A stretch of DNA of 64,000 nucleotides from assembly GCA_000092065.1 (NCBI GenBank), contig CP000599.1, one strand, 5' to 3'. This document shows positions 4,035-61,672 of the stretch, in pieces. The DNA comes from Ostreococcus lucimarinus. Its lineage: Eukaryota. Made by a program: the position numbers and the translations under genes. Positions within the stretch are counted from its first letter, which is position 1. Each line of letters opens with the position of its first letter. A model generated the notes under the pieces. It had not been told where the DNA came from and searched no databases. It was given only the letters and a program-made list of their open reading frames with translations.

Positions 4035-4166
4035 ATGAGTGTCAATCGAGGCGCGTTCGAGGGCGTTCGTAGTCGTTGTAAGTTCTGAACCCTAAGCTAA
4101 AAGCCCAAAGCCCTCTTCGCGTCGTCGTTCGCGTCGTCACATCGCGCCGGCGTCGCTCGTCGCGCC

Positions 4167-6236
4167 ATGACGCTTCGATTGCGACCCGCGGCGGCGTTGA
4201 TCGACGCCTTCAAGCGCGGTTCGCGCGAGTGCGTCGACGCCGCGACGCCGCAAACGACGAAAAACGACGCCGCATCGAACGATCGCGCGCCGCCCGACGC
4301 GAACGCGAACGTGCGTCGATACACGAAGAGCGAACTCGTGCGCGTGAACGACGCGAGCGGCGAGCACACGAAAGAGTTACCCGTGGAGCTGTCGACGTCG
4401 ACGCTCGAGTGCGTGACGAACGCGATCAACGAAGAGATCGCGGCGCGAGAGGGAAGCGTCTGGGGAAGACACCACGCCAAGAAGGACAAGGCGGACAAGG
4501 AAAAGGACGCGAAGACGGGCGATAAAGACGCGGTCGGTAGAGACGGTGAAGAGGGCGGTGAAAACGCGACGAGCGACGGCGCGGCGACCGAATCGAAGAC
4601 GGCGACCGATGTCGCGGACGCGACGCACAAGAAGCCGACGGCGGCGGCTGGGCCCATGGATGCGGAAAAATCAAAGCGACATTTGAAGAGCGCGTTCAAC
4701 AAACTCTCTCCCTCGGTCGCGGTGGATAAGTTTGTGGAGCAAATCACGGAGTGCGCGCTGCACGAACTCGCCGTGGCGGAGTTTTTGGCGAAGACGACCT
4801 GCGAGCGGGCGTCCGTGGATGAGAAAAACGTCGCCGTCATCGCCGACGCCGCGGCGCGTTTGATTTCGTCGGGCGCGACGCCGAGCGCGTACATCACGCA
4901 GAACGGTGCGAGCTCGACGACGTTCAAAAAGCTTCTCGTTGGCGCTTTGCAGGATGAGTTTGAAGGCGCGCAAGAAGCGCGCGAGGGCTTGCTCGCGCAC
5001 GCCGAGCGCCACGAGCGAGACGCGCAGGCGAAGAAAGTCAAGCAGCGCTTGGTCGGCGTCGCGCGCTTGATCGGCGAGCTCTATGCTCGCGGTGTGGTCT
5101 CCGTCGCCGTGGTGCGCGCGATTACCGATGAACTTTTGGGCGAAGCGCGATCCGTGCCGCGCGAAGACGACGTCGAAGCGCTGTGCGCGCTGCTCGCCGT
5201 CGCCGGCGCCAAGGTGGACGCCGAGGCGAAAAAGGCGATGGACGCCTACATGGCGCGCGTCAACGTACTCGCGGAGAGCGAACACCTCAACGCGCGCACG
5301 CGATTCGCGTGCCGCGACGTCATCGAACTTCGCGGCGCGGGATGGGCGAGTTCGGGGGCGAGCGCGGACTCTAAGAGTTCGCAAGCCGACCTCGCGAGCG
5401 AATCGCGCGTGGTTTCCGACGAACTTCTCTTCCCCGAAGGCCCGAAATCGCGCTCGAGCGGAGGTGGCGGCGCCCTCAAAGGCCCGTACTCGAAGCCAGG
5501 CGCGTTGAACGCGACGATGTTGCCCACAGCGGCGAACCGCGCGCGACTCGAGGCGGAGATGCGCCGCGGGGCGCGCGAACGCGCCGAAGCCAAGGCGGAC
5601 GCCGCCATGGCGGCCGCGTCGGGCGACGCCGGCGCGTCTACGTCGAGCTACACCGCCGAACAAGTGCAGCAAAAGATTGCGTCGCTCATCGACGAGTACT
5701 CCACCGTCGGCGACGTCAACGAGGCGTTGATGTGCGTCGCCGACGTCGTCGCTCGCTCGAGCGACGCCGACGCGGCGCGAGACGCCGTCGCGAAAGCGTT
5801 GGTGAATTTCGTCATCGACACGTCCACGCCGAAAGCCGCGAGCGCCGTCGGCAAACTTCTCGCCGCGCTTCATAACCGCGGCGGTTTCGCCACCGCCGTC
5901 GTCGAACAAGCCGTCGGTGACGTCGTCGCCGCGCTCGACGACGTCGCCATCGACGTGCCGATGGCGCCCAAACTCATGGCCGCCGTCGTCGCCGCCGTCG
6001 TCGCCTCGGGCGCGGTCGCCCTCGACTTCATCACCGCCGCCGGTTCGGGCGTCGAGGACGTGCAATTTCGTCGCGCGTTCGCCGGCGCGTGTTTGAACGC
6101 GCTGCGAGTCGAGCATAAATTCGCCGGCCTCGTCAAGGGCGCGCTCAATTTAGGCGACTTCGCCAAGAGCGAAGACGTCGGCGACGACACCGTCGTCGAG
6201 TGGCTCGCCAAGCTCAGCCTGGACGACCTCGCGTGA
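4167..6236 (+). CDS. eIF4G-family protein (MIF4G + MA3 domains), eIF(iso)4G-like
   Basis: The MIF4G core reads ...RLVGVARLIGELYARGVVSVAVVRAI...ARTRFACRDVIELRGAGW. A C-terminal MA3-like helical block reads (...EALMCVADVV...). An AACCCTAA telo-box lies 72 bp upstream. Confidence 0.65.
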   Translation: MTLRLRPAAALIDAFKRGSRECVDAATPQTTKNDAASNDRAPPDANANVRRYTKSELVRVNDASGEHTKELPVELSTSTLECVTNAINEEIAAREGSVWGRHHAKKDKADKEKDAKTGDKDAVGRDGEEGGENATSDGAATESKTATDVADATHKKPTAAAGPMDAEKSKRHLKSAFNKLSPSVAVDKFVEQITECALHELAVAEFLAKTTCERASVDEKNVAVIADAAARLISSGATPSAYITQNGASSTTFKKLLVGALQDEFEGAQEAREGLLAHAERHERDAQAKKVKQRLVGVARLIGELYARGVVSVAVVRAITDELLGEARSVPREDDVEALCALLAVAGAKVDAEAKKAMDAYMARVNVLAESEHLNARTRFACRDVIELRGAGWASSGASADSKSSQADLASESRVVSDELLFPEGPKSRSSGGGGALKGPYSKPGALNATMLPTAANRARLEAEMRRGARERAEAKADAAMAAASGDAGASTSSYTAEQVQQKIASLIDEYSTVGDVNEALMCVADVVARSSDADAARDAVAKALVNFVIDTSTPKAASAVGKLLAALHNRGGFATAVVEQAVGDVVAALDDVAIDVPMAPKLMAAVVAAVVASGAVALDFITAAGSGVEDVQFRRAFAGACLNALRVEHKFAGLVKGALNLGDFAKSEDVGDDTVVEWLAKLSLDDLA

Positions 6237-6289
6237 GGGAGTCGAGTCAGTCAGTGGACGCTTCACAGTAGCACGATAACACACGATTA

Positions 6290-7702
6290 ATGCGCACGAA
6301 CGAACGAGCGAGCGAACGAGCGCGTCGCCGCGAGCGCCGCGCGCGTCGACGCCGCACTCGTCGACGCGTCATGTCGCGCGACGTCGCGAGCGCGCTCGAC
6401 GTCGACGACGGCGCCGCCGCGACGCGCTGGCGATGCCCCAACCCGGCGTGGACGCCGCACCCGCGCGCGTCCGTCGCGACGTCGCGATTGGGACGACGCG
6501 ACCGCGACCGCGACCGCGACGACGACGACGACGACGCGACGCGTCCACCGCGCGCGAGCGCGCGCGCGAGCGCCCACGACGCGTCCGTCCCTGCGCTCGC
6601 GTCGACGTCGACGCGCGCTGCGCTCGCGAGCGACGCGCGCGGCGACTCGGACGGCGACGACGCGACGACGCGGACGTGGCGAGCGTGCTTCGCGACGAAG
6701 ACGCGCGTCGAGATCGAGGACGACGACGGACGCGCGCGAGAGTTTTGCGTGTACGCGTCCGAGGGCGCGAACGCGGCGTTTAGCGCGTCGGCCGAGGAAT
6801 CGCGGGCGACGCTGTTTCTGTTGCACGGGTGCCCGCACACGGCGTTGACGTGGTCGCTCGTGGCGGAGACGCTGCGATCGCGGCGCGAACGATGCGAGAT
6901 CGTGGACGTCGTCGCGATGGATTTGCGCGGACACGGCGAGAGCCATTCGCACGACGACGCGCTCGGGGAGACGAAGGCGTCGTTCGACGCCGATGTCATG
7001 GCGCGAGACTGCGCGAAGACGTTGCGGCGATTCGTCGACGGCGACGCCAGGCGCGTCGTCGTCGTCGGGCACAGCATGGGAGGCGCGGTCGCGACGCGCG
7101 TGGCGAAGATTTTAGAGACCGAATTCGGTGTGAGCGACTCGGCGTTGACGCTCGCGGGATTGGTTTTGATCGATATCGTCGAGGGGAGCGCGATGAAGGC
7201 GCTCCCGGCGATGGGCGCGCTCGTCGACGCGAGACCGACGACGTTCGCGTCGCTCGCGGATGCGTTTCATTGGTCCGCGACGCGAGGCGGCGGGACGAAA
7301 AATCAGCGTTCGGCGTCGTTATCGCTGCCTTCGCAGTTGCGCGAGACGGACGGCGGCGCGTGGACGTGGCGCGTCGACTTGCGCGAAACCGCGCCGTATT
7401 GGCGATCGTGGTACGAAGGGCTGTCCAAACGCTTTCTCGCCGTAAAGGCGCCGAAGCTGCTTTTGCTCGCCGGAAACGATCGTTTAGACACCGAACTGAT
7501 GATCGCACAGATGCAAGGCAAATTTCAGATGACCCTGTTGCCGAACGCCGGGCACGCGATTCAGGAGGACGACCCCGAATCCGTCGCCAACGCGCTCGAA
7601 AATTTTCTCGCGAGGTACGTGTTTCATCCGCGCCCGACGCCGCCGTCGTTCCTCGGGACCGAGGCGCCGAGAGAGCGGGGTTCGGGAATCGTTCGGGAAT
7701 GA
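6290..7702 (+). CDS. PPME1: Protein phosphatase methylesterase 1 (PPME1/PME-1), alpha/beta hydrolase
   Basis: LFLLHGCPHTALTWS...VVAMDLRGHGES...VVVVGHSMGGAVA...KLLLLAGNDRLDTELMIAQMQGKFQMTLLPNAGHAIQEDDPESVA aligns along the length of animal/plant PME-1. The N-terminal ~80 aa are low complexity (RDRDRDDDDD), so the true start may be the ATG at 6371. Confidence 0.85.
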   Translation: MRTNERASERARRRERRARRRRTRRRVMSRDVASALDVDDGAAATRWRCPNPAWTPHPRASVATSRLGRRDRDRDRDDDDDDATRPPRASARASAHDASVPALASTSTRAALASDARGDSDGDDATTRTWRACFATKTRVEIEDDDGRAREFCVYASEGANAAFSASAEESRATLFLLHGCPHTALTWSLVAETLRSRRERCEIVDVVAMDLRGHGESHSHDDALGETKASFDADVMARDCAKTLRRFVDGDARRVVVVGHSMGGAVATRVAKILETEFGVSDSALTLAGLVLIDIVEGSAMKALPAMGALVDARPTTFASLADAFHWSATRGGGTKNQRSASLSLPSQLRETDGGAWTWRVDLRETAPYWRSWYEGLSKRFLAVKAPKLLLLAGNDRLDTELMIAQMQGKFQMTLLPNAGHAIQEDDPESVANALENFLARYVFHPRPTPPSFLGTEAPRERGSGIVRE

Positions 7703-7761
7703 TGAGTGTCGCCGGCACGACAAAACTTAGTGACGCGTCGTCGTCGTAATAATAGCTATAG

Positions 7762-8808: not shown

Positions 8809-8947
8809 CGCGCGTCGACGCGCGACGCGACGCGCGACGCGCGACGCGACGGCGCGCGGGCGATGGTGCGGGCGGATTCGGACACACGGGGCCGACGCGC
8901 CGTGCGGTCGTATAAATAAAAAATTGAAAACAGATGGCCAAAATAAT

Positions 8948-9020
8948 AGGGCCATACGGGGCTCGAACCCGCGACATTCAGATTCGAAGTCTGACGCTCT
9001 TCCAACTGAGCTAATAGCCC
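8948..9020 (-). tRNA. tRNA-Arg (anticodon TCG), 73 nt
   Basis: Hand-folded cloverleaf. Acceptor stem GGGCTAT/ATGGCCC (one G.U), D-arm GCTCAGTTGGAAGAGC, anticodon stem TCAGA/TCTGA with loop CTTCGAA, T-arm GCGGGTTCGAGCCCCGT. Downstream on the same strand are T4, T4 and T6 runs (Pol III terminators) at 8943-8918. Confidence 0.85.
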
Positions 9021-9144
9021 CCGTAGTGTGAACGGCGCGAGCGCCATCAATGACGTTCCCAGACGATTTCGGGTCCCCACGGCGCCCCGCGGGCGTCGTC
9101 GCGCGAGTTACGGGTTGTTTCCCCAGTGCGCGCCCGCCGCCGCG

Positions 9145-9993
9145 ATGGGGAAGACGCGCGGCGACGACGCCGCGCCGACGACGCGCGATGGACTCGGACT
9201 CAAACCGCGCGGTGGCGTGAAAAATAAAGCGCTCCTAGGACGTAAATTCACGGGCGGTGCGCGCGCGTCGCCGTTCATTCGGCAGTGGGCGTGGAAGCGA
9301 GAGATGAAGACGGACGAGGAGCGATTCCGAGACGACTACGTGTACGACAGAGACGACGACGAGGACGACGCGAACCCGAAGGCGACGATCAGGCTGCGAC
9401 AACGAAAGTTTAACGCCGCGTCGAGCGGATTCGCGTCCACGGTGTGGGACAGCGCGATCGTGTTGGCGAAATATTTGGAAAAGCGAAATCGAGCGAGCGG
9501 CGCCGGCGCTCGGTGGCGAGACGCGGTTGAGTTAGGCGCGGGATGCGGGCTGTGCGCGTGCGTGTTGGCGAAACGGTGCGAAAATCTCGTGACGGGGACG
9601 ATTTACGCCACGGACGTCGCGGAGAATATGGATTTGTTGACGGAAAATGTGAAGGCGTGTTCGTCGCGAATCGCGCCGCTCGCGTACGACTGGCGAGACG
9701 CGCCGCCGAAGTCGATCGACGCGTCTCGCGTCGATCTCATCCTCGGGACAGATTTGGTGTACTACGACGACGCCATGCCCGCGCTGGTGAAGACGCTGAA
9801 ATCGTTCGAGAGCGAGGCGTTGGTGGTGTACTTTGCGTTCGGGCGAAATCGACAGGCGCTGCCGCGATTTTTGGAATGCTTCGACGCCGAGGCGCGCGAC
9901 GCGTTCGAAGAACCGAGGTTTTTGGAATCGCACGAGCTCGACGCGTTGTATCAGTGCACGGACGTGAGCGTGATGGAATTGAAGCGAAAGTAG
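9145..9993 (+). CDS. METTL21/FAM86-type protein-lysine N-methyltransferase (Methyltransf_16-like)
   Basis: Reads ...NAASSGFASTVWDSAIVLAKYLE...AVELGAGCGLCACVLAK...ILGTDLVYYDDAMPALVKTLKSF, with motif I GxGxG and the DLVY post-II motif typical of the family. Start taken at ATG 9145. Two TGTAA signals lie after the stop. Confidence 0.7.
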   Translation: MGKTRGDDAAPTTRDGLGLKPRGGVKNKALLGRKFTGGARASPFIRQWAWKREMKTDEERFRDDYVYDRDDDEDDANPKATIRLRQRKFNAASSGFASTVWDSAIVLAKYLEKRNRASGAGARWRDAVELGAGCGLCACVLAKRCENLVTGTIYATDVAENMDLLTENVKACSSRIAPLAYDWRDAPPKSIDASRVDLILGTDLVYYDDAMPALVKTLKSFESEALVVYFAFGRNRQALPRFLECFDAEARDAFEEPRFLESHELDALYQCTDVSVMELKRK

Positions 9994-10048
9994 AAAATTA
10001 TTGTAAAAAAGTGAGTCAAAGTCGCGTGTAAAAAAGTCGTCGCGAATC

Positions 10049-12091: not shown

Positions 12092-12112
12092 GATCGATCG
12101 ATCGATCGATCG
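12092..12112. repeat. (GATC)5 microsatellite in the AT-rich divergent FabD/GSA promoter
   Basis: gatcgatcgatcgatcgatcg. Confidence 0.8.
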
Positions 12113-12276: not shown

Positions 12277-13686
12277 ATGTTCGCCGCGACGACGACGCTC
12301 GGCGCGACGAAATTCGTCGTCGCGAAAACCTCGACGTCGACCTCGTCGCGCGCGCGACGATCGACGCCGCGCGTTCGCGCGCAGAGCGTCCAGGCGCCGG
12401 CGCTGAACACGACGCGATCGAGCGAGATCTTCAAGGCGGCGCAAGACATCCTGCCGGGAGGCGTGAACTCGCCCGTGCGCGCGTTCAAGTCGGTGGGCGG
12501 GAACCCGATCGTGTTCGAGCGCGTCAAGGATGCGTACGCGTTCGACGTGGACGGGAACAAATACGTCGATTACGTCGGATCGTGGGGACCGGCGATCTGC
12601 GGACACGCGAATGATCGGGTGAACGAGAAATTGAAGGCGCAGATCGATAAGGGGACGAGCTTCGGGGCGCCGTGTGAGCTCGAGAACGCGCTCGGCGAGA
12701 TGGTCATCGAGCGCGTGCCGAGCGTGGAGATGGTGCGATTTTGCAACTCTGGGACGGAGGCGTGCTTGTCCGCGCTGCGCGTGATGCGGGCGTACACGGG
12801 GAGAGACATGATCATTAAGTTCGAAGGGTGCTACCACGGACACGCCGACCCGTTCTTGGTCAAGGCTGGTTCGGGCGTCATCACGCTCGGGTTGCCGGAT
12901 TCGCCGGGCGTGCCGGCGGCGGCGACGGCGACGACGCTGTGCGCGACGTACAACAACCTCGATGAAGTCAAGGCTTTGTTCGCGGCGAACCCGGGTAAGA
13001 TTGCGGGGGTGATCCTCGAACCCGTGGTCGGGAACAGCGGTTTCATCGCCCCGGACAAGGAGTTTTTGCAAGGCTTGCGCGAGACGTGCACCAAGGAGGG
13101 CGCGGTGCTGTGCTTTGACGAAGTCATGACTGGGTTCCGCATCGCCAAGGGCTGCGCGCAAGAGTACTGGGGCGTCACCCCGGATTTGACCACCATGGGT
13201 AAGGTGATCGGCGGCGGTATGCCCGTCGGCGCGTACGGGGGTAAGCGCGAAATCATGGACATGGTCGCCCCGGCGGGTCCGATGTACCAAGCCGGTACGC
13301 TCTCCGGGAACCCGCTCGCCATGGTTGCTGGCATCGAAACGTTGAAGATTCTCGGCGAACCGGGTCAGTACGAAAAGTTGGACAAGCTCACCAAGCGCTT
13401 GATCGAGGGCATCTTGAAGGCGGGTAAGGACAACGGCCACGCGGTGTGCGGCGGTCACATCTCGGGCATGTTTGGTTTCTTCTTCACCGAAGGTCCGGTG
13501 AAGAACTTCGCCGACGCGGCGAAGAGCGACACCGAAAAGTTCGGTCGCTGGCACCGTGCCATGCTCGAAGAAGGTGTCTACTTGGCCCCGTCCCAATACG
13601 AAGCCGGTTTCATGTCTTTGGCGCACACCGAAGCGGACATTGACGCCACCATCGCCGCCGCTCAACGCGCGATGGCGCGCATTTAA
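12277..13686 (+). CDS. HEML: Glutamate-1-semialdehyde 2,1-aminomutase (GSA-AT), chloroplast tetrapyrrole pathway
   Basis: Near full-length match to HemL/GSA: [18 protein letters not shown]...[13 protein letters not shown]...FCNSGTEAC...DEVMTGFR...[16 protein letters not shown]-terminal transit-peptide-like extension. Confidence 0.95.
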
Positions 13687-17191: not shown

Positions 17192-17363
17192 GCGCGCCGA
17201 GGCCGAGGTCCGACCGACCGATGCGTAGACTGTATTGCCATACATCTCGTATAAAGACAACAGAAACGCCATCGCGCGCGCGCGCCGAGGCCGAGGTCCG
17301 ACCGACCGATGCGCAGACTGTATTGACATACACCTCGTATAAAGACAACAGAAACGCCATCGC
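17192..17363. repeat. Tandem duplication (2 x 86 bp, ~95% identity) in the GH5/EBP1 divergent promoter, each copy carrying a TATAAAG box
   Basis: ...CCGAGGCCGAGGTCCGACCGACCGATGCG(T/C)AGACTGTATTG(CC/A)ATACA(T/C)CTCGTATAAAGACAACAGAAACGCCATCGCG repeated. TATAAAG at 17251 and 17337; the second is 75 bp upstream of the EBP1 ATG. Confidence 0.85.
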
Positions 17364-17411
17364 GGGGCACTAGGGCTTCGCGACGACACACCGCGACGCT
17401 TCGCCGCCGCC

Positions 17412-18693
17412 ATGGCGGACTCCGACAGCGACTACGCGAGCGACGACGAATCGACGATCGACGAGAGCGAGTTCACGTGCGAGAACGTGCGTCGATCGAC
17501 GCGACGCGCGACGCGACGCGGTGACGCGCGACGACGCCGCGACGAGCGAAGAGGACGATCGAACGATCGACGACGACAGGCGCGAGCGACTGACGACGAC
17601 GCCGAGACGACGCGCGCGGACGAAACAGCCGGATGTGGTGACGAAATATAAGATCGCGGCGGACTGCGCGAACGCGGCGATGAAGGAGGTGCGCGCGGCG
17701 ATCGCGGTCGGGGCGAAGGTTGTGGATTTGTGCGCGCTCGGCGACGCGGCGATCGAGCGAGAGACGGCGAAGTATTACAATAAAAAGGATAAGGATGGGA
17801 ATAAGGTGGAGAAAGGGATCGCGTTTCCGACGTGCGTGTCGATCGATAACTGCGTGTGCCATAACTCGCCGGACGCGAGCGATGCGAAGACGATCGAGGA
17901 CGGGGCGAGCGTGAAGATCGATTTGGGGGCGCACGTGGACGGGTACGTGGCGACGACGGCGACGACTGTCGTCGTGGGCGGTAAACCGGTGACGGGGGCG
18001 CAGGCGGACGTGATGAAGGCGGCGGAGTTGGCGAGTGAAATCGTCATTCGTAAGCTCAGGCCGGGGGCGTCGACGGGGGAAATCGGCGGCGTCATCGAGG
18101 GCGTGGCGAAGGATTTCGGCGTCAACGTCGTCGAGGGCGTGATGACGCATAACATGAAGCGTTTTATCATCGACGGTAACAAGGTGATTCTGAACAAGTC
18201 TACGCCGGAGATGAAGGCTGATCCCGAGGAGATTGAGCTCTATGAAGTCTACGCGTTGGACATTGTCATGTCGAGCGGCGAGGGCAAGCCCAAGCAAAGG
18301 GACGAGAGAGAAACCAAGGTTTACAAGCGCGCCATCGAAAAGAACTACCAGTTAAAGATGCAAGGTTCGCGCGCGGTTTTCTCGGAAATCTCAAAGCGAT
18401 TCCCCACCATGCCCTTCACCGCGCGGGCGTTGGAAGAGAAGCGCGTCAACTTTGGCCTCGTCGAATGCTGCAACCACGGGTTGTTGCACGCCTACCCGGT
18501 GCTTTACGAAAAGGATGGTGCCGCCGTCGCGCACGTCAAGAGCACGTTCTTAGTGTTGAAGAAGGGCAACGATCGCATCACGACCTTTGAGCCGCAAGAG
18601 GTGCAATCGGACAAGTCGCTTAGCGACAACGCGTTGGTCGAACTCATCGCGACCGAACTCAAGCCGAAGCCCAAGCCCAAAAAGAAGAAGTGA
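17412..18693 (+). CDS. PA2G4: Proliferation-associated protein 2G4 / ErbB3-binding protein 1 (EBP1; M24-fold non-peptidase); 2 exons: 17412..17486 and 17629..18693
   Basis: Exon 2 aligns with EBP1 (VVTKYKIAADCANAAMK...KGIAFPTCVSIDNCVCHNSP...KIDLGAHVDGYVA...). Exon 1 is MADSDSDYASDDESTIDESEFTCEN, followed by a GTGCGT donor at 17487. The branch motif GCGACTGACG and the acceptor ..AAACAG| at 17628 follow. The junction reads ...ESTIDESEFTCENPDVVTKYK, compared with human EQTIAEDLVVTKYK. The 5' UTR carries CTAGGGCT, a telo-box-like motif on the other strand. Confidence 0.8.
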
Positions 18694-18888: not shown

Positions 18889-20460
18889 CTAGCCGACGAA
18901 TTCGGCCGACATCCCATCGCCACCGCGAGACGGTGCGCGGACGCAGAGCAAAACGCGGGCCAACGTATTAATCTTCTTACCGTCACGCTCGGACTGTAAA
19001 ATGTCTTTACCATCCATGACGGAGACGGTTTCCGCGGCGGCGTTGCTTCCAGCCAAGACGAGCGAGGACGTCTTAGCGACGAGATAATACTGGCCGAAGC
19101 GCGGTGAGTTGTCGGATTTATCGGAGATCAATAAACCGGGCTCGGCCTTGTCTTTGACGCCCTCGATGTCCGTCTGCGACGTGTCGTCGATGAACAAAGC
19201 GAAGGGCGCTACGGCTTGGAGCAACAGATCCCACTTCGGCAACGCCACCCAATCGGTGTTGGCCTGCGGCGAGAACACACCAAAGATGTTTCCGGTGTTC
19301 TCGAGAACACCTGCGGTGCGAACCTTTGCGGCGGTGACCTTGTTCAAGTTTCCGATGACTGGCATCGGGATGAATAGGAACTCGGCTTCCTCGAGGCGAA
19401 CGACTTGGAGCTCCGCCTCGCGAGCGCCTTCGTCGGATTCACCGTTGGCGAGCGAGCCGCCTTCGCCCAGTTTTGTGCGCTTAAACAGTTCCACCGCCGT
19501 CGCCATGCGCGCCTTGGCTTTTTCCGTGACGGCGTACAGCATACCGCGTTCGAAAATCTTGAGCGCCTCCTCCTCGCCCTGGTACCGCTGCAACTCGAGA
19601 ATGTCGCGATAGAGCTTGTAAGCCAAAATGTCCCCCGGCGTGTCGTTGAAATCTCTGGCCGCCACCGTGCGAACGTTGGCGGATTTAATTTCGTACGCCT
19701 TGACCAATTCGCGCGTTTGTGTTTCTTCAAATTCGTTGTCGACGACGAACGTCGCCGCCGCCGCGCGCGTCGCCGCGGGCATGTACATAATTTGCGACAA
19801 GTTCGGCGCCCCGCGATATTCATCGTGGAAATACTCGAGCTTTGTGCTGTCGAAATCTAACCCTTCCTTCAAGCTCGCGTAGCACTGCAACCACACCACC
19901 CACGTCGCCTGTTCCTTCGGTTCGATGCCCGTCGCGTCGAAGATGTCCGTCGACGTCATCCCCTTCGCCTGCAACGGTCTGATAAATTTCGCCAGCGTGA
20001 ACCACATCCCCGCGCGCTGTCGCATAAGCATCATCATTCTCTCCGGGTCGTTCTCATCCTCGCTCACTTTCGCCGCTTCGTACGTCTCCGGCGGCTTGAA
20101 CGGCTCGTACGCCCCCTGCAACTCGCCGCCAACCTTTGGAATCACCCCCGCCGGTCCTTTCCGCTCCCCAGCCGTCGTCGCCCCCCCGCTCATCGGGTTC
20201 CTCTGCACCACCACGGCGTCGGCGTCGAATCCATCCATCCCCGGCACGATCAGCCCCCCCCCCGGTGGTTTCGGCGCGCTCGCGCCGCCGCCGCCGAACG
20301 TCGGCAGCGCGCTCGGGTCAAATTGAAAATCATCATTCGTCGCCCGCGTCGCCCGATCCTCGCCCCTCCGCGTCGCCCGTCGCGTCCGCGCGCGTCGCCC
20401 GTCGCGTCCCGCGCGTCCCGCGCTCGCGACGACGCGCGCGCGCGCGCCCGCGACGCGCAT
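18889..20460 (-). CDS. RAF1: Rubisco accumulation factor 1 (RAF1), chloroplast
   Basis: Transit-peptide-like N-terminus, then ...YEPFKPP...RAGMWFTLAKFIRPL...GIEPKEQATWVVWLQ...; domain order and motifs match plant/cyanobacterial Raf1. A TGTAA signal lies downstream on the minus strand. Confidence 0.65.
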   Translation of the reverse strand: MRVAGARARVVASAGRAGRDGRRARTRRATRRGEDRATRATNDDFQFDPSALPTFGGGGASAPKPPGGGLIVPGMDGFDADAVVVQRNPMSGGATTAGERKGPAGVIPKVGGELQGAYEPFKPPETYEAAKVSEDENDPERMMMLMRQRAGMWFTLAKFIRPLQAKGMTSTDIFDATGIEPKEQATWVVWLQCYASLKEGLDFDSTKLEYFHDEYRGAPNLSQIMYMPAATRAAAATFVVDNEFEETQTRELVKAYEIKSANVRTVAARDFNDTPGDILAYKLYRDILELQRYQGEEEALKIFERGMLYAVTEKAKARMATAVELFKRTKLGEGGSLANGESDEGAREAELQVVRLEEAEFLFIPMPVIGNLNKVTAAKVRTAGVLENTGNIFGVFSPQANTDWVALPKWDLLLQAVAPFALFIDDTSQTDIEGVKDKAEPGLLISDKSDNSPRFGQYYLVAKTSSLVLAGSNAAAETVSVMDGKDILQSERDGKKINTLARVLLCVRAPSRGGDGMSAEFVG

Positions 20461-20903
20461 CTTTTCGTTCGCGCGTCGCTTTTTCGCGTATCCGACTCGA
20501 CGACGCTCGAGCCGCGTCGATCGGTCCGCGCGCGCGTCGCGTCGCGCGTCGCGTCGTTCACGACTCGCTCGGCCGTCGATCGATCGAAGTCTCGGGCGTC
20601 GTCGATCGTCGTCGACGCGCGCGCGACGACGTGTGCGCGCGCCTCGGGGGGGCGGCGGCGGTCGATGCCCTAGCGAAACCCTCGTTACGTATTATACGCT
20701 AAATTCGCCGATGTAGCGAAGAATCGCGATCGCGCGCGATCGATCGCACCCGCTTTTCGCGCGATCGACGGCGCGTCGATCGCGATCGACGCGCGATCGA
20801 CGGCGCGTCGATCGACCCGAGACGTCGCCGCCGCGCGACGAACCGAACGCGCGCCGACGATCGCGCCGGTCCGCCTTTACGCCGCGCGCATCGATCGCGC
20901 GTC

Positions 20904-22135
20904 ATGGCGGTCGGAAAGAACAAGCGCATGTCCAAGGGCAAGAAGGGCGGGAAGAAGAAAGCGTGCGTGCGCGACGCGACCCGAACGACCGCGAGGCGAC
21001 GCGCGAGGCGACGGGAAGAGGATCGATCGACGCGACGGGCGAAAGAAGGACGCGGGACGACGACGACGACGGGCGACGCCGGGGGGGGTGACGGACGCGC
21101 GCGAAGCGCGAGGACGCGCGAGAAGGCGCGAGACGGTGGATCAAAATCGCGACCGTCGATGGGGGGCGCGACGGGCGCGCGAGCGCGCGGGAGGAGGACG
21201 CGGGGGAGGGGGACGGCGACGCGATCGATGCGCGTTTAGGGCTTGCGGAATGACGATGGGACGACGACTGACGCCAAGTGTTCGCTCGTCGCGCAGTGTT
21301 GACCCGTTCACGAAGAAGGATTGGTATGATATTAAGGCGCCGAGCATGTTCTCCGTGAGAAACATCGGCAAGACGCTCGTGAGCCGCACGCAAGGGACCA
21401 AGGTAGGGCGCGCGCGAGATGAGGGTTAAAAGCCCTAGCGAACGACGCGACGCGACGCGGCGCGGATTCGAGGAACGGTTGACTGACGATGACGAACGAT
21501 GTTTTGCGCGAAAATAGATTGCCTCCGATGGCTTGAAGGGACGGATCTTTGAAATCTCCCTCGCGGACTTGAACAACGACGAGGACCAGAGCTTCCGCAA
21601 GATGAAGCTCAAGTGCGAAGACGTGCAAGGCAAGAACGTGTTGACGAATTTCGCGGGCATGGATTTCACCACGGATAAGATTCGCTCGTTGGTTCGTAAG
21701 TGGTTCTCTTTGATTGAGTGCTTCGTTGACGTGAAGACGACGGATGGGTACACGCTTCGCGTGTTTTGCATCGGTTTCACCAAGCGACGCATGGATCAAG
21801 CCAAGCGCACGTGCTACGCGCAGAGCGCGCAGATTCGTAAGATTCGCGCCAAGATGGTTGAAATCATCACGCGCGAGTGCACGACGTGCGACTTGAAGGA
21901 ACTCGTCTTGAAGTTCATCCCGGAGGTCATCGGCAAGGAGATTGAAAAGTCTTGCGCCGGTATTTACCCGCTTCAAAACGTGTACATTCGCAAGGTCAAA
22001 ATCTTGAAGGCGCCGAAGTTTGACTTGACCAAGCTCATGGAGGTGCACGGTGATTACAGCGGTGAAGCCGTCGGTGAGGCCGTGGCGCGACCGGTCGAGG
22101 AGAAGGCTGAGGAAACTGCGGAGGCTGCGGAATAA
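20904..22135 (+). CDS. RPS3A: Cytosolic ribosomal protein eS1 (RPS3A); 3 exons: 20904..20962, 21297..21402, 21518..22135
   Basis: Exon 1 is [19 protein letters not shown] + gc, followed by a GTGCGT donor. Intron 1 is 334 nt and ends ..GACGACTGACG..CGCGCAG|. Exon 2 is (A)[35 protein letters not shown], followed by a GTAGGG donor. Intron 2 is 115 nt and ends ..TTGACTGACG..AAAATAG|. Exon 3 is [18 protein letters not shown]...[21 protein letters not shown].... The product is colinear with eukaryotic eS1 throughout. Confidence 0.92.
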
Positions 22136-22452
22136 GTCGATGACTTGATCCAAAGATGTTTCGTCGACGCCGGCGGCGTTTTTTGAAAGACGTCGGCGAC
22201 GCCGGCGAGCGCGACGACGCGCGAGTTGTCTCGCGCGTCATCGTTTACGGGGGTGTTTGAACGAATGAGGAGACATTTTTACTAGACTGAAATTCTCGCC
22301 GATCTCATTTCGAGGGTGACGCGTTTGTAATGAATGAATGCGAGCGCGTTTACAAATTTTGCGAGCTCGTCGTCTGCGATGCGTCCCGACGGCGACTCGA
22401 TCGCGGCGTCGGAACGTTTCGATAAAATAGTATGCTCTTCGTGATTGATTGA

Positions 22453-47459: not shown

Positions 47460-48602
47460 CTAACTCGACGCGTCGTCCGAACGTTTCTCTCGCGCGCCGA
47501 TGAACGCCGACATTTCCACCGCCGCCGTTCGAGTCGGCGACGCGTACGCGTCGTCGTCGTCGTCGTCGTCGTCGTCCATCGTCGCGCGCGTGAGCACGAC
47601 GAACCCATCGCCCGCGGCTCGAGCCCCGCCCTCGTCGTCGCCCTCGTCGTCGTCGCTCGCGAAATCGACGTCGTCCGCGAGATCTCCCAACCCCGTCTGC
47701 GCGTCCTCCGCGCCGACCCCCCGCGCTCGCGCCGAGAGCCGCGCGCACCCGAACGCCGTCGCCAACTCCACCGCCATCTCCCCTCGCGCCGGGTGCGCCA
47801 ACACGAACACGATCGCGTGCACCGCCCCCTGCGACGTCTTACACGCGACGTGCGCGCACGCGAGCCACAGCGCCGGCTTCGCTCGCCCCGCCAGCGTCGA
47901 CGCCCGCAGCGCCGTCCCCGGCACGTTCGTCACCACCTGCGCGATCGGGTACCACGCCAACCGTCGCACGTACGTCCGCAATCGCGCGTGCGCTCGCCGC
48001 GCCGTCGCGTCGTCGCGCCCCAACGTCGCCTCGAGCGCCGCCGCGCTCGCCATCCCGCGACGAATCGCGCGCCAGCAGCGCGCGTTGTAACAAAACGCCG
48101 CCCAAATCGGGACGTAATAAAAAACCAACCGGATTGTCGCCGCGCGCCTCCCCTCCGATTTCACGTGACACCGCCCCAGCCTCGAATCGCCGTACGCGTT
48201 CGCGAGCATCGGCGCGAGCGCCGACGCCGCGCACGCCGTCCACGCGAATCCGTCCTCGCGTCGCGCGTCGCCCCTCGCGCGTCCCGCGCGCAGGCTCTCC
48301 ATCAGCGCCCGCGACACGAGCGCCGCCCACACCGCGCCGGCGACGCCGAACGTCTGTATCAACGCGCCCTGCAAAGCGCAGATCGCGCCGCCGCGCGCGC
48401 CGCGATCGCCGAGCGCGCACGCCGTCGAAAACATCAAATCGCTCAGCGCCAATCGTTTCACGTACGCGTACGTCCTGCCGCGCGTACTGCGCGTCGCGAT
48501 CGCGCCCGCGAGGAGCACGAACGACGCGCCGGCGATCGACGCCGCTGAAGCGACGCGGTTCGTCGCGCGCACGATCGCGCGTTCGTCGGGCGTCCACGAC
48601 AT
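47460..48602 (-). CDS. Seven-transmembrane receptor-like protein (possible GPCR, cAMP-receptor/GCR1-like), 381 aa, acidic C-tail
   Basis: Start ATG 48602 (MSWTPDERAIV...). 6-7 hydrophobic helices. The long poly-D C-terminal tail is cytosolic-like. The rest of the track ORF up to 49727 is antisense of the USP gene and was rejected. Confidence 0.4.
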   Translation of the reverse strand: MSWTPDERAIVRATNRVASAASIAGASFVLLAGAIATRSTRGRTYAYVKRLALSDLMFSTACALGDRGARGGAICALQGALIQTFGVAGAVWAALVSRALMESLRAGRARGDARREDGFAWTACAASALAPMLANAYGDSRLGRCHVKSEGRRAATIRLVFYYVPIWAAFCYNARCWRAIRRGMASAAALEATLGRDDATARRAHARLRTYVRRLAWYPIAQVVTNVPGTALRASTLAGRAKPALWLACAHVACKTSQGAVHAIVFVLAHPARGEMAVELATAFGCARLSARARGVGAEDAQTGLGDLADDVDFASDDDEGDDEGGARAAGDGFVVLTRATMDDDDDDDDDAYASPTRTAAVEMSAFIGAREKRSDDASS

Positions 48603-48825
48603 TGTGGATTGAAAATTCGCGATCCGATGATTCGCGTCGCGATCGCGCGGCGTTCGGTTCGACGCGCGTCTCGATCGTCTCGGAACGTGTTCGCGATCGT
48701 TTACGACGCGTCGACGCGTCGACGCGCGGCGCGCGCGCGGCGCGATCGCGCGATTCGACGCGGGGGCGATCGATCGACGGCGGTGATTCGCGGACGCGAA
48801 CGCGAACCGTCGCGATCGGACACTC

Positions 48826-50920: not shown

Positions 50921-50985
50921 CGATCGATCGATGCGTCGCGCAGTGCCGCACACGACGACGCGACGCGCCGACGCGTCGACGTCGA

Positions 50986-56228: not shown

Positions 56229-56404
56229 TTCGTCGTCTCGCGTCGTCGCGACGCGGTTCGAGACGCCCGCGCGCGAGTATTTTTCGCGTGCGATCGCGTT
56301 CGACGCGATTCGCGATCGCGATTCGCGATCGCGCAAAGCGCGGCGTCGCGAGCCGTCGCGCTCTGACGCGAATCGCGTCGCGTCGGGCCGTCGTGATGTA
56401 TCAT

Positions 56405-56412
56405 AAACCCTA
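56405..56412. promoter_or_regulatory. Exact telo-box AAACCCTA 116 bp upstream of the uL3 ATG
   Basis: tcatAAACCCTAtattt sits in the only AT-rich patch of the ATPase/uL3 divergent promoter. Confidence 0.5.
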
Positions 56413-56527
56413 TATTTACGTATTGTACACTTTTTAGTACTATGTAGATGTAGATTTTGGGTAAAACGAGCGCCCCGATCGCGCGCGCGCGTCCGCACAC
56501 GACGCCGAGACGCGCGCGCGCGCCGTC

Positions 56528-57610
56528 ATGCTTCGTCGCGCCTGCGCGCGCGCGGCGACGCGCGTCGCCGCGCTCGTCGCGCCGAGCCGCGCGATCGGCG
56601 CGCCGCTCGCGTCGCCGCGCGCGCGATTTCCGTCGCCGCCGCAACTCGTCGCGTCGGCGAATCATCGCCTCGCGAGCGCGCGCGCGGCGGCGCCTCGACC
56701 GTCGAGCGCGGGAATCGCGCGCGATCGACGCTCGGCGCGATCGAACGCGGTCGAGCGCGCGACGTACGCGACGTCGGCGCGCGCGGTGGACGCGGCGCAC
56801 CGAAGGGCGAACGCGACGCGCGCGGCGACGCGAGAGGCGCGCCGAAGGACCGGCGCGGTGGCGATCAAGACCGGGATGACGTGCGATTGGGACGCGCGAG
56901 GGACGAGGATCCCGCTCACGGTGCTGTGGATCGACGATTGCGAGGTGGTGGCGGCGAAGACGTCGAGCGGGGCGGACGGGTACGACGCGGTGCAGGTGGG
57001 ATACGGAAGCCGAAAGCCGAAGCAGGTGACCAAGGCGGAGCTGGGGTACTTTGTGCGAAGGAAAACGAACATTAAGAGAGCGCTGTGCGAGTTTCGGACG
57101 AGCGCGGACGGGGTGCTGGCGCCGGGGACGGCGATCACGGCGGCGCACTTCGCGGCGGGGCAGTACGTGGACGTGCAGGGCGTGACCAAGGGGAAAGGGT
57201 TTCAGGGACCGATGAAGCGGTGGGGGTTCTCGGGACAGCCCGCGAGTCACGGGAACACGAAGAAGCATCGCGCGCACGGGAGCATCGGGCAGTGCCAGGA
57301 CCCGGGGCGAGTTTTTAAGGGGAAGAAGATGGCGGGTCGGATGGGCGGCAGGACGCGCACGGTGCAGAGCGCGTACGTGTACAAGGTGGACACGGAGAAG
57401 AATTTGGTGTACGTCAAGGGACAAGTCCCGGGGAACGCCGGAATGGCGGTGAAGATCAGAGACAGCCTGCGGAAACCGCCGGCGCTGGACGGGAGCGAGG
57501 TGCCGTTTCCGACGGCGGTGGCTGGCGAGCACCCGACGGGGGTCTTCGTCGCGCCGCCGCAGGGCGCGGATCCGTTCGGTAACCCCGAACCGGTGAAGCA
57601 GCGCGCGTGA
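56528..57610 (+). CDS. RPL3: Organellar (bacterial-type) ribosomal protein uL3, nucleus-encoded with N-terminal targeting peptide
   Basis: ...GMTCDWDARGTRIPLTVLWIDDCEVVAAK...VQVGYG...GQYVDVQGVTKGKGFQGPMKRWGFSGQPASHGNTKKHRAHGSIGQCQDPGRVFKGKKMAGRMG... matches bacterial/mitochondrial/plastid uL3. Confidence 0.85.
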   Translation: MLRRACARAATRVAALVAPSRAIGAPLASPRARFPSPPQLVASANHRLASARAAAPRPSSAGIARDRRSARSNAVERATYATSARAVDAAHRRANATRAATREARRRTGAVAIKTGMTCDWDARGTRIPLTVLWIDDCEVVAAKTSSGADGYDAVQVGYGSRKPKQVTKAELGYFVRRKTNIKRALCEFRTSADGVLAPGTAITAAHFAAGQYVDVQGVTKGKGFQGPMKRWGFSGQPASHGNTKKHRAHGSIGQCQDPGRVFKGKKMAGRMGGRTRTVQSAYVYKVDTEKNLVYVKGQVPGNAGMAVKIRDSLRKPPALDGSEVPFPTAVAGEHPTGVFVAPPQGADPFGNPEPVKQRA

Positions 57611-58553: not shown

Positions 58554-58694
58554 CTCCGCCGCGACCGCGCTCGGGCGCGTCCAGACGGCGTCCAGCGCGC
58601 GCGACAGTGCGGATTGCGAAATTGCACTTTTTGGGGACGCGCCGAACGCGCGCGCGTTCGCACTCCTCGACGCGCCCCGGACGCGCCGCGCGTC

Positions 58695-59474: not shown

Positions 59475-59648
59475 CGCGGCCGCGACGCGTCCGGATGTAA
59501 AACGAATGAAATCCGTCTTCGACGCGCGTCGCTTCGCGTCGTCCCGCGGCGCGCTGGGTGTTACCCCGCACACCGTCGCGCGGACGCGCGCGTCGCGCGA
59601 TATTTCGACGCCGAGTCGACGAACGCGTCGTCGACAAAGCTCGGCGTC

Positions 59649-61019
59649 ATGCAGAGCGCCGAAAAACGCCCGCGGTACGCCCTGATCGACTGCGAAGACG
59701 ACGCGAGGTGGCACGGCTTGGCCCAGTGCATCGTCAAACTTTTCGGCCGCGACGACGAAATCTGGCACCACTACCGCGCGTGCGACGGCGAGTTGCCGTC
59801 GAAAGAGATGTTCGCGACGTACGACGGCGTGGTGGTGTCGGGGAGCTCGCACAAGGCGGAGTGGGACACGAACGGGACGCCGCGGTGGACGCGAGCGCTG
59901 GGCGAGTGGCTGCGACGCGCGACGGACGATCGACATCCCGAGTACACGCGCGACGCCGACGGAGGAAAGAAAAAGGTGAAAATATTAGCGATGACGTTCG
60001 CGGGGTACCTGTGCGCGATGGCGAACGGGGGGGCGGTGGGGATGATTCCGAACGGCGGACACGTCGTCGGGGCGACGGCGATGAAGACGACGGAGGCGTG
60101 GCGACGATCGAAAGCGTTCGTCAAGGCGCGGGAGACGTACGGTGAACCGATGGATGGTAAGGGAGAGACGCTGGTGGTGCATCAAAATCGCGCGCAGAGG
60201 ATTGAGCGATTGCCCGAGGGCGCGACGGCGACGACGACGAGCGGAGACGGGGAGATTGAAATGTGGACGACGCGCGATGGACGCTGTTTAGCGTGGCAGC
60301 ACTCGTTCAGCGATGGCGTCGCGAGCGTGTTGTCGCACAAAGTCGAGAGCGGGCTCGAGGCGAGGCGGTCCGAGAAGAGCGCGGCGGCGGCGGGGGACGT
60401 AAAGCCGGATGATTTGCCAAACAACGACGCCGGGTTTCTCATCGGCGTCGCGCGCGCGTTTTTGCGCGACGGCGCGCTCGCGAGCGACGAAGACGAAGAA
60501 TATTTACGCACTCGCCGCCGCGAGGCGCGCGAGACTTTGTCGTGGGCGGCGCGACGGAGAGAGGAAATCATGGCGGCGCGCGCGGCGCGCGGCGCGCGGC
60601 CCGGCGCGGCCAACGCCAAACGCGACGCCGCGAACGATGGTTCGACCGCGCCAGCGATCGTCGAGCGAGAAGAATCCGCGCGCACGCAAGCCATGGCCGC
60701 GCGCGCGTTCACCAAAATCGCCGACACCGTCAACGCCGAGCTCTCGCTCGCCGCGAGCGAGGTTCGATTTCTCCAAAACGCCAACGAAACCGCCGCTCGC
60801 GAGTACGACGCCGTCGGCGAATCCATCGCCGACTTGCACGTCTTCATCGGCGCATTAAAAGCCAAGGACGAGGCGATGAAACCAAAGTTAGACGCGATCT
60901 TAGCCATCGAAGGCGAGGTGGACGCGTTGGAGACGCTCGCGCGCGCCGTCGACAAGCGCGTCTCCGCGCTCGAGCTTCGTCTCAAATCCATCAAGTCCAA
61001 GCGCGCGAGCGCGACGTGA
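59649..61019 (+). CDS. Class-I glutamine amidotransferase-like domain protein with C-terminal coiled coil (456 aa)
   Basis: N-terminal ~230 aa are GATase1-like (...YDGVVVSGSSHKAEWDTNGTPRW...KVKILAMTFAGYLCAMANGG...). The C-terminus is a K/E/A coiled coil. ATG start. Confidence 0.45.
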   Translation: MQSAEKRPRYALIDCEDDARWHGLAQCIVKLFGRDDEIWHHYRACDGELPSKEMFATYDGVVVSGSSHKAEWDTNGTPRWTRALGEWLRRATDDRHPEYTRDADGGKKKVKILAMTFAGYLCAMANGGAVGMIPNGGHVVGATAMKTTEAWRRSKAFVKARETYGEPMDGKGETLVVHQNRAQRIERLPEGATATTTSGDGEIEMWTTRDGRCLAWQHSFSDGVASVLSHKVESGLEARRSEKSAAAAGDVKPDDLPNNDAGFLIGVARAFLRDGALASDEDEEYLRTRRREARETLSWAARRREEIMAARAARGARPGAANAKRDAANDGSTAPAIVEREESARTQAMAARAFTKIADTVNAELSLAASEVRFLQNANETAAREYDAVGESIADLHVFIGALKAKDEAMKPKLDAILAIEGEVDALETLARAVDKRVSALELRLKSIKSKRASAT

Positions 61020-61160
61020 GCGCCGCGCCCGCGCGCGTGCCATTGTAAATTATTATTTTAAACCAGCGCTCGCTCGCGCGTTAGACGCGTTCCAATCGCC
61101 GCTCGCCTCGTCGAACGCTCGCCTCGCGTCCGCACACCGCGACGCCGCCCATCCCTCGCG

Positions 61161-61526
61161 ATGTCCGATCGCGTCCCCGACGCCCTCGACGCCGTCACGA
61201 ACGAAGATCGTTTCACCGTCGAGCTCGAGTTCGTGCAATCGCTCGCCAATCCGCGCTACGTCCACTTCTTAGCCTCAAAGGGCGTCCTCAGGGATGACAG
61301 ATTCATCGCGTATCTCCGCTATCTGCGCTACTGGGAGCGCCCGGAGTACGCGAAATTCATCCTCTACCCCCACTGCCTGCGGTTTCGAAGGCTCCTGCTC
61401 GACGACGCCTTCCGCGTCGCGATGGAGAACCCGCGAAACGCCGAGCGCGCGTTCAAGGCGCAGTTTGAACGCTGGAGCGCGCGCGGCGCGGCGCCGAGCC
61501 GCGCCGACGCGGACGCGAACGCGTGA
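61161..61526 (+). CDS. MED31: Mediator complex subunit 31 (MED31/SOH1)
   Basis: RFTVELEFVQSLANPRYVHFLASKGVLRDDRFIAYLRYLRYWERPEYAKFILYPHCLRF matches the MED31 consensus (FxxELEFVQCLANPxYxxFLA...YLKYLxYWxxPEYAKxxxYPxCL). Confidence 0.88.
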   Translation: MSDRVPDALDAVTNEDRFTVELEFVQSLANPRYVHFLASKGVLRDDRFIAYLRYLRYWERPEYAKFILYPHCLRFRRLLLDDAFRVAMENPRNAERAFKAQFERWSARGAAPSRADADANA

Positions 61527-61649
61527 CGGTTCGCGCGATGCGAGCGCGAAAAAGAGGGATTCGCGTCGCCGCGCGTCGACGACGACCCTCGCGCGTCGGC
61601 GCCGCTCGGCGCCGCGTCGCGCGTTGAAATTACACCGCGCGCGGCGCTG

Positions 61650-61672
61650 ATTTAGGGTTTAGGGTTTAGGGT
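61650..61672. repeat. Interstitial telomeric repeat (TTTAGGG)3, G-strand orientation, 40 bp upstream of the 61711 ATG
   Basis: gatTTTAGGGTTTAGGGTTTAGGGTTcg; three perfect units 61.6 kb from the telomere. Confidence 0.9.

Follow-up and report, generated by a model that had tools for sequence, protein, structure and literature searches.

The telo-box is a textbook promoter element of plants, and the locus described here raises the question whether the same short word also serves translation genes in a distant green alga. The locus is a stretch of 64,000 nucleotides from Ostreococcus lucimarinus (GenBank assembly GCA_000092065.1, contig CP000599.1), referred to below as the window. A sequence-only reading of the window had listed seven telomere-like motifs near genes of the translation apparatus and had suggested that a regulatory module known from Arabidopsis is conserved in a prasinophyte-grade alga, a description of the host that is correct for O. 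lucimarinus. All seven sites exist, and most of their coordinates are right; three are off by 1–2 bases, e.g., 17370 instead of 17369, and 20676 instead of 20674. Absent from that list are the telomere at 1–138, a subtelomeric repeat at 432–470, and a telomere-like 14-mer at 63137–63150. Judged from the sequence, the land-plant gene switch seems to be used in Ostreococcus as well. The word AA(A/G)CCCTA is probably a functional cis-element of the telo-box type, similar to the plant words TBX and SBX, at the 5' ends of cytosolic translation genes.

The telomere-like word in the window

The window starts with a perfect (CCCTAAA)n tract at 1–133, which runs on to 138 and contains 19 tandem matches of AAACCCTA. 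It is therefore a chromosome end, with the true telomere at 1–138. The telomere unit of O. lucimarinus itself is (CCCTAAA)n, i.e., AAACCCTA/TTTAGGGT, and it is this unit that the promoter motifs copy. The telomere unit of Chlamydomonas is TTTTAGGG.

The window has a GC content of 64%, which would also have suited Micromonas, but exact look-up of two of its proteins (XP_001422363.1 and XP_001422360.1) identified O. lucimarinus CCE9901. A map of approximately 36 genes was drawn up from codon-position GC and Pfam. Four of these genes belong to the translation apparatus, and the identities proposed earlier are borne out by Pfam domains and PDB matches. The eIF4G-like gene (4167..6236, + strand; XP_001422360.1) encodes MIF4G and MA3 domains and a YxxxxL-hydrophobic motif. 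Its top PDB matches are the MIF4G domains of eIF4G1/2 (E about 1e-18), and it contains RRYTKSELV, a motif of the eIF4E-binding type. The EBP1/PA2G4-like gene (Peptidase_M24; 17412..18693, + strand) consists of exon 1 at 17412–17486, one intron at 17487–17628, and the remaining coding sequence. The eS1 (RPS3A) gene (20904..22135, + strand) has two introns, with exon 1 at 20904–20962, intron 1 at 20963–21296, exon 2 at 21297–21403, and intron 2 from 21404 to about 21518. The fourth gene encodes organellar uL3 (56528–57610, + strand) and has its ATG at 56528.

To compare the frequency of the motif with chance, the non-coding (11.1 kb) and coding (52.4 kb) parts of the window were separated, and each segment was simulated by its own first-order Markov chain. 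Outside the telomere, the non-coding DNA holds six clusters of ARCCCTA versus 0.24 expected, a number reached in 0/1000 simulations. Coding DNA holds one cluster versus 1.0 expected, and thus no excess. The exact word AAACCCTA is found outside the telomere in four matches at three places, compared with an expectation of 0.23 in the entire window. In an unbiased screen of non-coding k-mers, AACCCTA ranked fifth among 7-mers and AAGCCCTA eighth among 8-mers. The non-coding words in greatest excess in the window include TTGTAA, TGTAAA, and TTGTAAA; such TGTAA-type words are presumably the green-algal polyadenylation signal and were taken as a positive control of the screen. The loosest pattern, RCCCTA, is not enriched in the window minus its telomere (13 versus about 9). 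Since the enrichment is seen for the 7–8-mer core in non-coding DNA and not for RCCCTA, the signal resides in that core. Base composition as sole cause, which the sequence-only reading had named as a possible refutation, is thus sufficient for the loose pattern and fails for the ARCCCTA core.

All six non-coding clusters are located between -122 and +527 relative to an ATG, at five genes. They lie at -79 of the eIF4G-like gene, at -41 of the EBP1-like gene, at -122 of organellar uL3, at -58 to -44 of a gene starting at 61711, and at +333 (intron 1) and +527 (intron 2) of eS1. The statement that the motif marks promoters and early introns of translation genes agrees with this distribution, as ARCCCTA was found there in 4/4 translation genes versus 1/32 other genes (Fisher p=8.5e-5, with gene classes defined post hoc).

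The site of the eIF4G-like gene, AACCCTAAGCTAAAAGCCCAAAGCCCT (4088..4114, +), is located 53–79 bp before the ATG at 4167 and comprises one telo-box unit and two AAGCCC (SBX-like) words. Both the AAACCCT-type TBX word and the SBX word AAGCCC are thus present in the window, and here they stand side by side. The telo-box unit itself, AACCCTAA at 4088–4095, lies 72 bp before the ATG, and one AGCCCA (site II-like) word at 4103 adjoins it. At the EBP1-like gene, CTAGGGCTT (17370..17378, +) corresponds to CTAGGGCT(T), a G variant (opposite strand, AAGCCCTAG), and stops 34 bp short of the ATG at 17412. Intron 1 of eS1 contains TTTAGGGCTT (21235..21244, +), i.e., TTTAGGGC(TT), and intron 2 contains AGGGTTAAAAGCCCTAG (21422..21438, +), an inverted pair of half-sites. 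TAAACCCTA, followed by TTTACGTATTGTAC (56404..56428, +), is found 116–124 bp before the uL3 ATG; the exact word AAACCCTA at 56405–56412 ends 116 bp before it, in a region common to a divergent P-type ATPase gene. The 61711 gene is preceded by (TTTAGGG)3TT (61651..61673, +) at 38–60 bp before its ATG, the third unit ending 40 bp short of it. A further site, TTAGGGTTTAGGGG (63137..63150, +), lies in frame inside exon 2 of an IBA57/CAF17 gene. Lastly, AAACCCTC (20676..20683, +), situated 221 bp before the eS1 ATG, is a doubtful 7/8 match. Exact telomere units are present at sites 4088, 56405, 61651, and 63137, and the one-base G variant AAGCCCTA at 17370, 21235, and 21431. Both orientations are represented, with the G-strand in eS1 intron 1 and the C-strand in intron 2.

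Some of these promoters show additional features. The EBP1-like promoter contains a tandem duplication of ~88 bp (about 17200–17365) with one TATAAAG box per copy (17250, 17338), and its second copy ends just short of the CTAGGGCTT motif. The promoters of eS1 (20676–20716) and uL3 (56404–56453), the only two ribosomal-protein (RP) genes in the window, share the arrangement of AAACCCT, 2–3 bases, TTACGTATTRTAC, and then GATGTAG 13–19 bp further on; TTACGTA occurs just three times in 64 kb. The composite AAACCCT-N-TTACGTATT common to both was rejected as a candidate, as the pattern is not significant and is not conserved in other eS1 promoters. The eS1 promoters of the other lineages have AT-rich ACGTAT-type blocks in common, without AAACCCT.

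Conservation at orthologous loci and in the uL14 family

Homologues of eS1 match mostly transcript-sized contigs (~1 kb), which leave no room for a promoter. Orthologous loci were reached through single-exon neighbour genes, and the gene for GSA aminomutase (12277–13686; XP_001422363.1 by exact protein look-up) was used for the eS1 region. Three distant Ostreococcus-like lineages, L015/16, L017/18, and L115/116, proved informative, with about 20 kb each. Their GSA aminomutase is 89–92% identical to the copy in the window, and codon usage correlates with that of the window at r=0.95–0.96 for L015 and L017. The non-coding DNA of all three is unalignable with the window, and the gene order differs. 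All ARCCCTA matches in these loci fall at the eIF4G-like promoter, the EBP1 promoter, or the eS1 introns (5/5 in L015, 7/7 in L017, and 2/2 in L115), and none was found at the other roughly ten genes per locus.

The promoter of the eIF4G-like gene contains one unit in the window, three in L015, and four in L017. The motif is kept although the upstream neighbour differs, being an uncharacterised gene in the window and, in L015 and L017, a divergent ThiF gene. In the EBP1 promoter, CTAGGGCTT is found in the window (-41) and in L017 (-235), TTTAGGGTTTAGGGC in L015 (-147), and AAGCCCTAA in L115; the L017 site is located upstream of an AT-rich TATA-like block. Intron 1 of eS1 contains TAGGGCTT in the window, L015, and L017, and TAGGGTTTT in L115. 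Intron 2 contains AAAGCCCTAG in both lineages for which this intron is available, i.e., the window and L017. Palindromic pairs were observed in the L017 eIF4G promoter (AACCCTAGTTAGGGTT) and in eS1 intron 2 (AGGGTTAAAAGCCCT). The A and G forms (a T/C interchange on the other strand) swap at the same site in the EBP1 promoter and in eS1 intron 1. Since the two forms replace each other at orthologous positions, they are most suitably treated as a single element, AA(A/G)CCCTA.

The same motif was singled out by a shared-word test. AACCCTAA is the sole non-CG-rich 8-mer common to the three eIF4G-like promoters, and AAGCCCTA is the sole one common to eS1 intron 1. For eS1 intron 2, the common words are AAAGCCCTAG and the branch point only, CG-rich words aside. 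Five control regions from the same loci have no ARCCCTA word in common. Between lineages, the eS1 introns therefore share only the 8–10 nt motif and the branch point. An Rfam scan of 20400–22200 (E<=1) detected no snoRNA or other RNA family in the eS1 introns; two sub-threshold microRNA matches at 20775–20879 lie upstream of eS1, outside the introns. The proposal of a conserved module is thus upheld for the eIF4G-like, EBP1, and eS1-intron sites in three lineages, and for uL14 as described below, and is not upheld for the sites upstream of eS1, uL3, and the 61711 gene.

The RP gene uL14 provides an independent family. A metagenome collection was scanned with an alignment of two uL14 peptides, yielding 80 uL14 loci from many eukaryotes. 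The Mamiellophyceae-type genes among them fall into three sets, namely high-GC group 1, high-GC group 2, and a Bathycoccus-like set. In the high-GC relatives, TTTTAGGGTTT is found beside or within the first intron of uL14. Group 1 consists of L056/L058 together with L101-106, which are population variants of one species, and of a second species represented by L052/L107-114. In its uL14 genes, CGCGTTTTTAGGGTTTCG lies about 50 bp inside intron 1. This site is the sole ARCCCTA match of the 6.4-kb loci, which span about seven genes, and the 10-kb loci of the L052-type species contain one further match, in the intron of an unannotated gene. This second AACCCTA, seen in L107, was discarded as evidence, as its location makes it uninformative either way. 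Group 2 (L057/L064/L066) has TTTTAGGGTTTT and GAACCCTAAACCCTAAAAACCCTAACC just before exon 2. Compared with one high-GC lineage, in which TTTTAGGGTTT stands by itself, another has three additional C-strand units.

Plant-like uL14 loci, taken as a positive control, carry the expected telo-boxes. In 46 distinct eukaryotic uL14 loci taken together, the density of ARCCCTA clusters is 0.70/kb in the interval -300..+100 versus 0.13/kb elsewhere, an excess of 5.4 times at the 5' end (p=1.3e-5). This hints at a very broad or recurrent association of the motif with uL14 across eukaryotes. Fungal-like and low-GC unidentified eukaryotic uL14 genes (L032, L047/L051, L059) have AGCCCTA or AACCCTA 79–127 bp upstream.

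The proposed element and its alternatives

The pattern looks like that of a transcription-factor binding site, because it is short, orientation-free, variable in copy number, 5'-proximal, tied to one functional class, and kept through turnover. AA(A/G)CCCTA is the telomere unit of the alga itself, either unaltered or with one A-to-G substitution. It occurs in either orientation and in 1–4 copies, with orientation flips at orthologous sites, which describes its occurrence and not its activity. According to the proposed mechanism, the element would be under selection and would act independently of orientation from the proximal promoter, the probable 5' untranslated region (5'UTR), or the first introns. 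A telobox-type Myb protein would most likely bind it, and the bound Myb would help to give translation genes a common transcriptional programme. In O. tauri, this programme would correspond to the wave of ribosome-biogenesis and translation genes that runs from late night to dawn. The binding factor, the direction of the transcriptional effect, the diel timing, and the homology with the plant TBX/SBX words are points that we infer. Telobox Myb proteins are reported in O. lucimarinus (PMC4700174).

The suggested timing draws on the plant 'midnight module' PBX/TBX/SBX (Michael et al. 2008, PMC2222925), in which TBX (AAACCCT) and SBX (AAGCCC) are tied to protein synthesis. These two words share a CCC core, and protein-synthesis genes are phased to late night (PMC2222925). 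The two forms of the Ostreococcus element match AAACCCT and AAGCCC. Unlike the bare AAGCCC of the midnight module, however, the G form in Ostreococcus is longer, reaching AAGCCCTA(G), and differs from the full telo-box by one base; no PBX (ATGGGCC) was noted in Ostreococcus. In O. tauri, the peak of genes for the biogenesis of the 80S ribosome precedes dawn by 3 h; translation regulators, among them eIF4G, reach theirs at dawn, and the genes of organellar RPs follow 3 h later (PMC2850359). Because of the plant midnight module and these pre-dawn and dawn peaks, it is plausible that the element helps to time the cytosolic translation regulon.

Several points weigh against this interpretation. 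The sample is small and local, comprising a single window of 64 kb, four orthologous regions, and one RP family in addition; the classes compared in the Fisher test were set after seeing the data, and the positions of sites are given relative to the ATG, not to the transcription start site (TSS). In L115, the eIF4G-like gene is inverted and its promoter has degenerate copies only (ACCCTAG, AAACCTAG). No conserved telo-box is present upstream of eS1, where conservation is confined to the introns, and both AAACCCTC (20676) and GCCCTAG (20667) are missing in the other lineages. The uL3 and 61711 sites are missing in L009 (Ostreococcus-like codon usage, 59% GC), L010 (Bathycoccus-like, 48% GC), and L012. 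In the Bathycoccus-like set (46–48% GC), the motif was found in 0/13 uL14 loci, and Bathycoccus-like uL3 promoters are without it. The codon usage of uL14 group 1 is unlike that of Ostreococcus (Leu TTG 6% vs 35%), with group 2 being intermediate; group 1 is therefore probably another high-GC genus, and the tetranucleotide signature gave no genus for the uL14-positive lineages. Moreover, TRB proteins proper are reported to arise within streptophytes (PMC12616469).

Among other explanations, chance arising from base composition, or from the relaxed composition of non-coding DNA, is effectively refuted and retains next to no probability. It could draw on the loose RCCCTA pattern, which stays near expectation once the telomere is removed, and on the two unconserved sites at 20676 and 20667. 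However, the non-coding Markov null yields 0.24 clusters against the six observed, the motifs rank near the top of the unbiased k-mer screen, and they are kept at orthologous sites in three further lineages whose flanks are unalignable, being absent from the control regions. The recurrence at the same three genes in four lineages, with differing copy number, orientation, and position, also speaks against neutral scars, i.e., functionless telomere repeats left by telomerase or by the repair of double-strand breaks. Neither the non-telomeric G form AAGCCCTA nor the confinement to the 5' ends of translation genes would be expected of such scars, which are unlikely as a general explanation. They may nevertheless explain the origin of individual copies, especially the array at 61651, a perfect tandem repeat of polymorphic copy number, and the exon site at 63137, an in-frame telomere-like 14-mer in a poorly conserved part of IBA57. 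The location of the window at a chromosome end fits this origin, and plant telo-boxes have been suggested to derive from insertions (PMC3022908). Insertional origin and later regulatory use are compatible.

The element could also act as RNA, for instance as a splicing enhancer or a TOP-like translational motif in the 5'UTR or intron, and not as a DNA site. Several sites are indeed transcribed (eS1 introns 1 and 2, uL14 intron 1), and those located 34–79 bp before the ATG may fall in 5'UTRs. Nonetheless, this explanation is very improbable, given that the orientation differs between introns 1 and 2 of one gene, eS1, and flips at the EBP1 promoter (TAGGGCTT in the window vs AAGCCCTAA in L115). 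The occurrence of both orientations therefore suggests an element at the DNA level; the L017 EBP1 site lies upstream of its TATA-like block, and no Rfam family was matched. More room is left for a general chromatin or boundary element, acting by nucleosome exclusion, as an insulator, or by recruitment of the Polycomb/TRB type, without being specific to a regulon. Yeast Tbf1 and plant TRBs have general roles of this kind, and TRBs recruit PRC2 and JMJ14 through teloboxes (PMC11287191). Boundary elements would be helpful in the very short intergenic regions of Ostreococcus, and the motif is also found at non-translation genes (61711; the intron of the unannotated gene in L107). A general element should, however, be spread more widely: none was found at about 30 other promoters in the window or at the other roughly ten genes per locus in L015, L017, L115, and L101-106. 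A boundary function is thus assigned a low, although not negligible, probability.

The translation-gene element preferred here resembles most closely the telo-box (TBX, AAACCCTA[A]) of RP and translation-factor genes in Arabidopsis, rice, and moss, which is bound by TRB Myb proteins. In both cases, the word is identical to the organism's own TTTAGGG-type telomere unit, is present in 1–4 copies and in either orientation, lies near the gene start including the 5'UTR and first intron, and is found in excess at genes for RPs and translation (PMC3022908, PMC2576244, PMC12616469). In Arabidopsis and rice, it is positioned at about -60 to +180 of the TSS (PMC2576244). The Ostreococcus sites are found at -122 to -41 of the ATG or in introns 1–2, and those of the high-GC uL14 genes in intron 1, all on an ATG basis. 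Readers of the plant word are telobox Myb proteins (TRB/TRFL) or Pur-alpha, and transcription is modulated jointly with site II or tef boxes. In Ostreococcus, no synergy with site II/TCP or tef boxes was seen, save for the one adjacent AGCCCA at 4103. Unlike the plant element, the Ostreococcus one uses its G form AAGCCCTA and its A form interchangeably, and the host is a chlorophyte (Mamiellophyceae), a lineage outside the streptophytes to which TRB proper is reported to be confined (PMC12616469).

A second parallel is provided by the fungal Tbf1 regulon, in which RP genes carry TTAGGG-type sites, with the palindrome TTAGGGN6CCCTAA in Candida albicans, and in which a telomere-type Myb protein reads the motif and controls the ribosomal regulon (PMC2834713). 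The two systems share a telomere-repeat-like motif at a ribosomal regulon, and the pairs AACCCTAGTTAGGGTT and AGGGTTAAAAGCCCT are likewise palindromic. They belong to different kingdoms, however, the palindrome is not the rule in Ostreococcus, and in many fungi, unlike in Ostreococcus, the Tbf1-type motif is not the organism's own telomere repeat. Interstitial telomeric sequences, which stem from chromosome fusion or telomerase-mediated repair, are similar in that copies of the telomere unit lie off the chromosome end, and the array at 61651 varies in a microsatellite-like manner. In contrast to them, the Ostreococcus sites consist of 1–4 units without long degenerate arrays, are tied to gene 5' ends and one functional class, and are kept at orthologous sites in 3–4 lineages. 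Individually, the 61651 array and the 63137 exon site could fit this family.

These findings extend a known plant promoter module to a chlorophyte, as the same word and its G variant are present in a 13-Mb genome with very few transcription factors. The likely origin of the module would be pushed back before the chlorophyte–streptophyte split; alternatively, the likeness would be a striking convergence, as with fungal Tbf1. A bolder and rather doubtful proposal is that AA(A/G)CCCTA is an ancestral control word of the green lineage, possibly older, with a telomere-capping Myb protein as its reader. If so, the element would predate the streptophyte TRB family, a telomere-capping protein would set the pre-dawn ribosome wave, and a single ancient circuit would have given rise to both the plant TBX/SBX 'midnight module' and the fungal Tbf1 regulon. 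Since O. tauri is transformable and has tiny promoters, Ostreococcus would be a tractable system for finding the reader and for linking ribosome production and its diel timing to telomere-binding proteins. The motif is also a compact candidate part for algal expression cassettes. The literature covered, which did not include a 2009 Ostreococcus footprinting study, contains no report of telo-boxes in promoters of Ostreococcus, Micromonas, or Chlamydomonas. That study, by Piganeau et al. 2009 (J Mol Evol 69:249), may already list the motif.

Organellar uL3, 61711, and IBA57 sites, and other features of the window

The uL3, 61711, and IBA57 sites are kept in the sister lineage L007/L008, which is about 90% identical even in coding DNA. 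At this level of identity, their retention is uninformative and was not counted as support. The uL3 and 61711 sites may be young. Since the eIF4G-like, EBP1, and eS1 sites are kept in the more distant lineages and those of uL3 and 61711 are not, deep conservation is seen at cytosolic translation genes.

The 61711 gene encodes a protein of 239 residues, whose sole similarity is a weak one to the ZPR1 jelly-roll domain (Pfam E=2.5e-4, under the family gathering threshold; PDB 2qkd E=5.5e-5). The gene is preceded by three TTTAGGG units in the window, two in the same-species contig L004, and two to three in L007; the copy number of the 61651 array is thus polymorphic, even within the species. From the presence of this array, co-regulation of the 61711 gene with the translation apparatus had been predicted. 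This prediction is now a weak one, because the site is not conserved past the near-identical sister lineage.

L009 is without any ARCCCTA over 20 kb. Its promoters of uL3 and the 61711 orthologue (3850–4560, 9740–10000) carry CCCATA-type words, TAGCCCATAGCCGTACCCATAGCG and CATATGGGTGAC, which may be a lineage-specific replacement motif. Runs of N are found in L001 (about 9930), L002 (about 9880–9975), L004 (about 4815–4950), and L011 (about 4520–4590). Those of L001, L002, and L004 lie on or beside telomere-like sites and hide the motif in these loci; the runs are probably assembly or scaffolding gaps caused by repeats.

The exon site TTAGGGTTTAGGGG codes for L-G-F-R-G and makes use of the rare codons TTA (6% of Leu) and AGG (6% of Arg), followed by ATA (4% of Ile). 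The IBA57 segment in which it lies is not conserved in the L009 orthologue. The site may have arisen by in-frame insertion of a telomere repeat, or it may be an element embedded in the exon, and it is probably outside the promoter module.

Three tandem 13-bp units of CTAACCCTAGTTT, a degenerate telomere-like subtelomeric repeat, are located at 432–470, past the telomere and ahead of the first gene, whose 3' end faces them. ARAGORN called tRNA-Phe (48575–48672) and tRNA-Pro (62489–62570) without confirmation by Rfam. A tRNA-Arg(TCG) gene at 8947–9021 (- strand), called by ARAGORN and matched by Rfam with 67.9 bits, lies between the ThiF-like and Methyltransf_16 genes and is strongly conserved in L015 and L017. 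It overlaps the ATG of the ThiF open reading frame as called, and the true start of this frame is therefore probably further downstream. Finally, CCGCACAC is found on the coding strand 22–40 bp (83 bp in one case) before the ATG of five plus-strand genes, at 50946, 56493, 59566, 61130, and 61689 (+). With six occurrences in non-coding DNA versus 0.25 expected, it may be an initiator or a 5'UTR motif.

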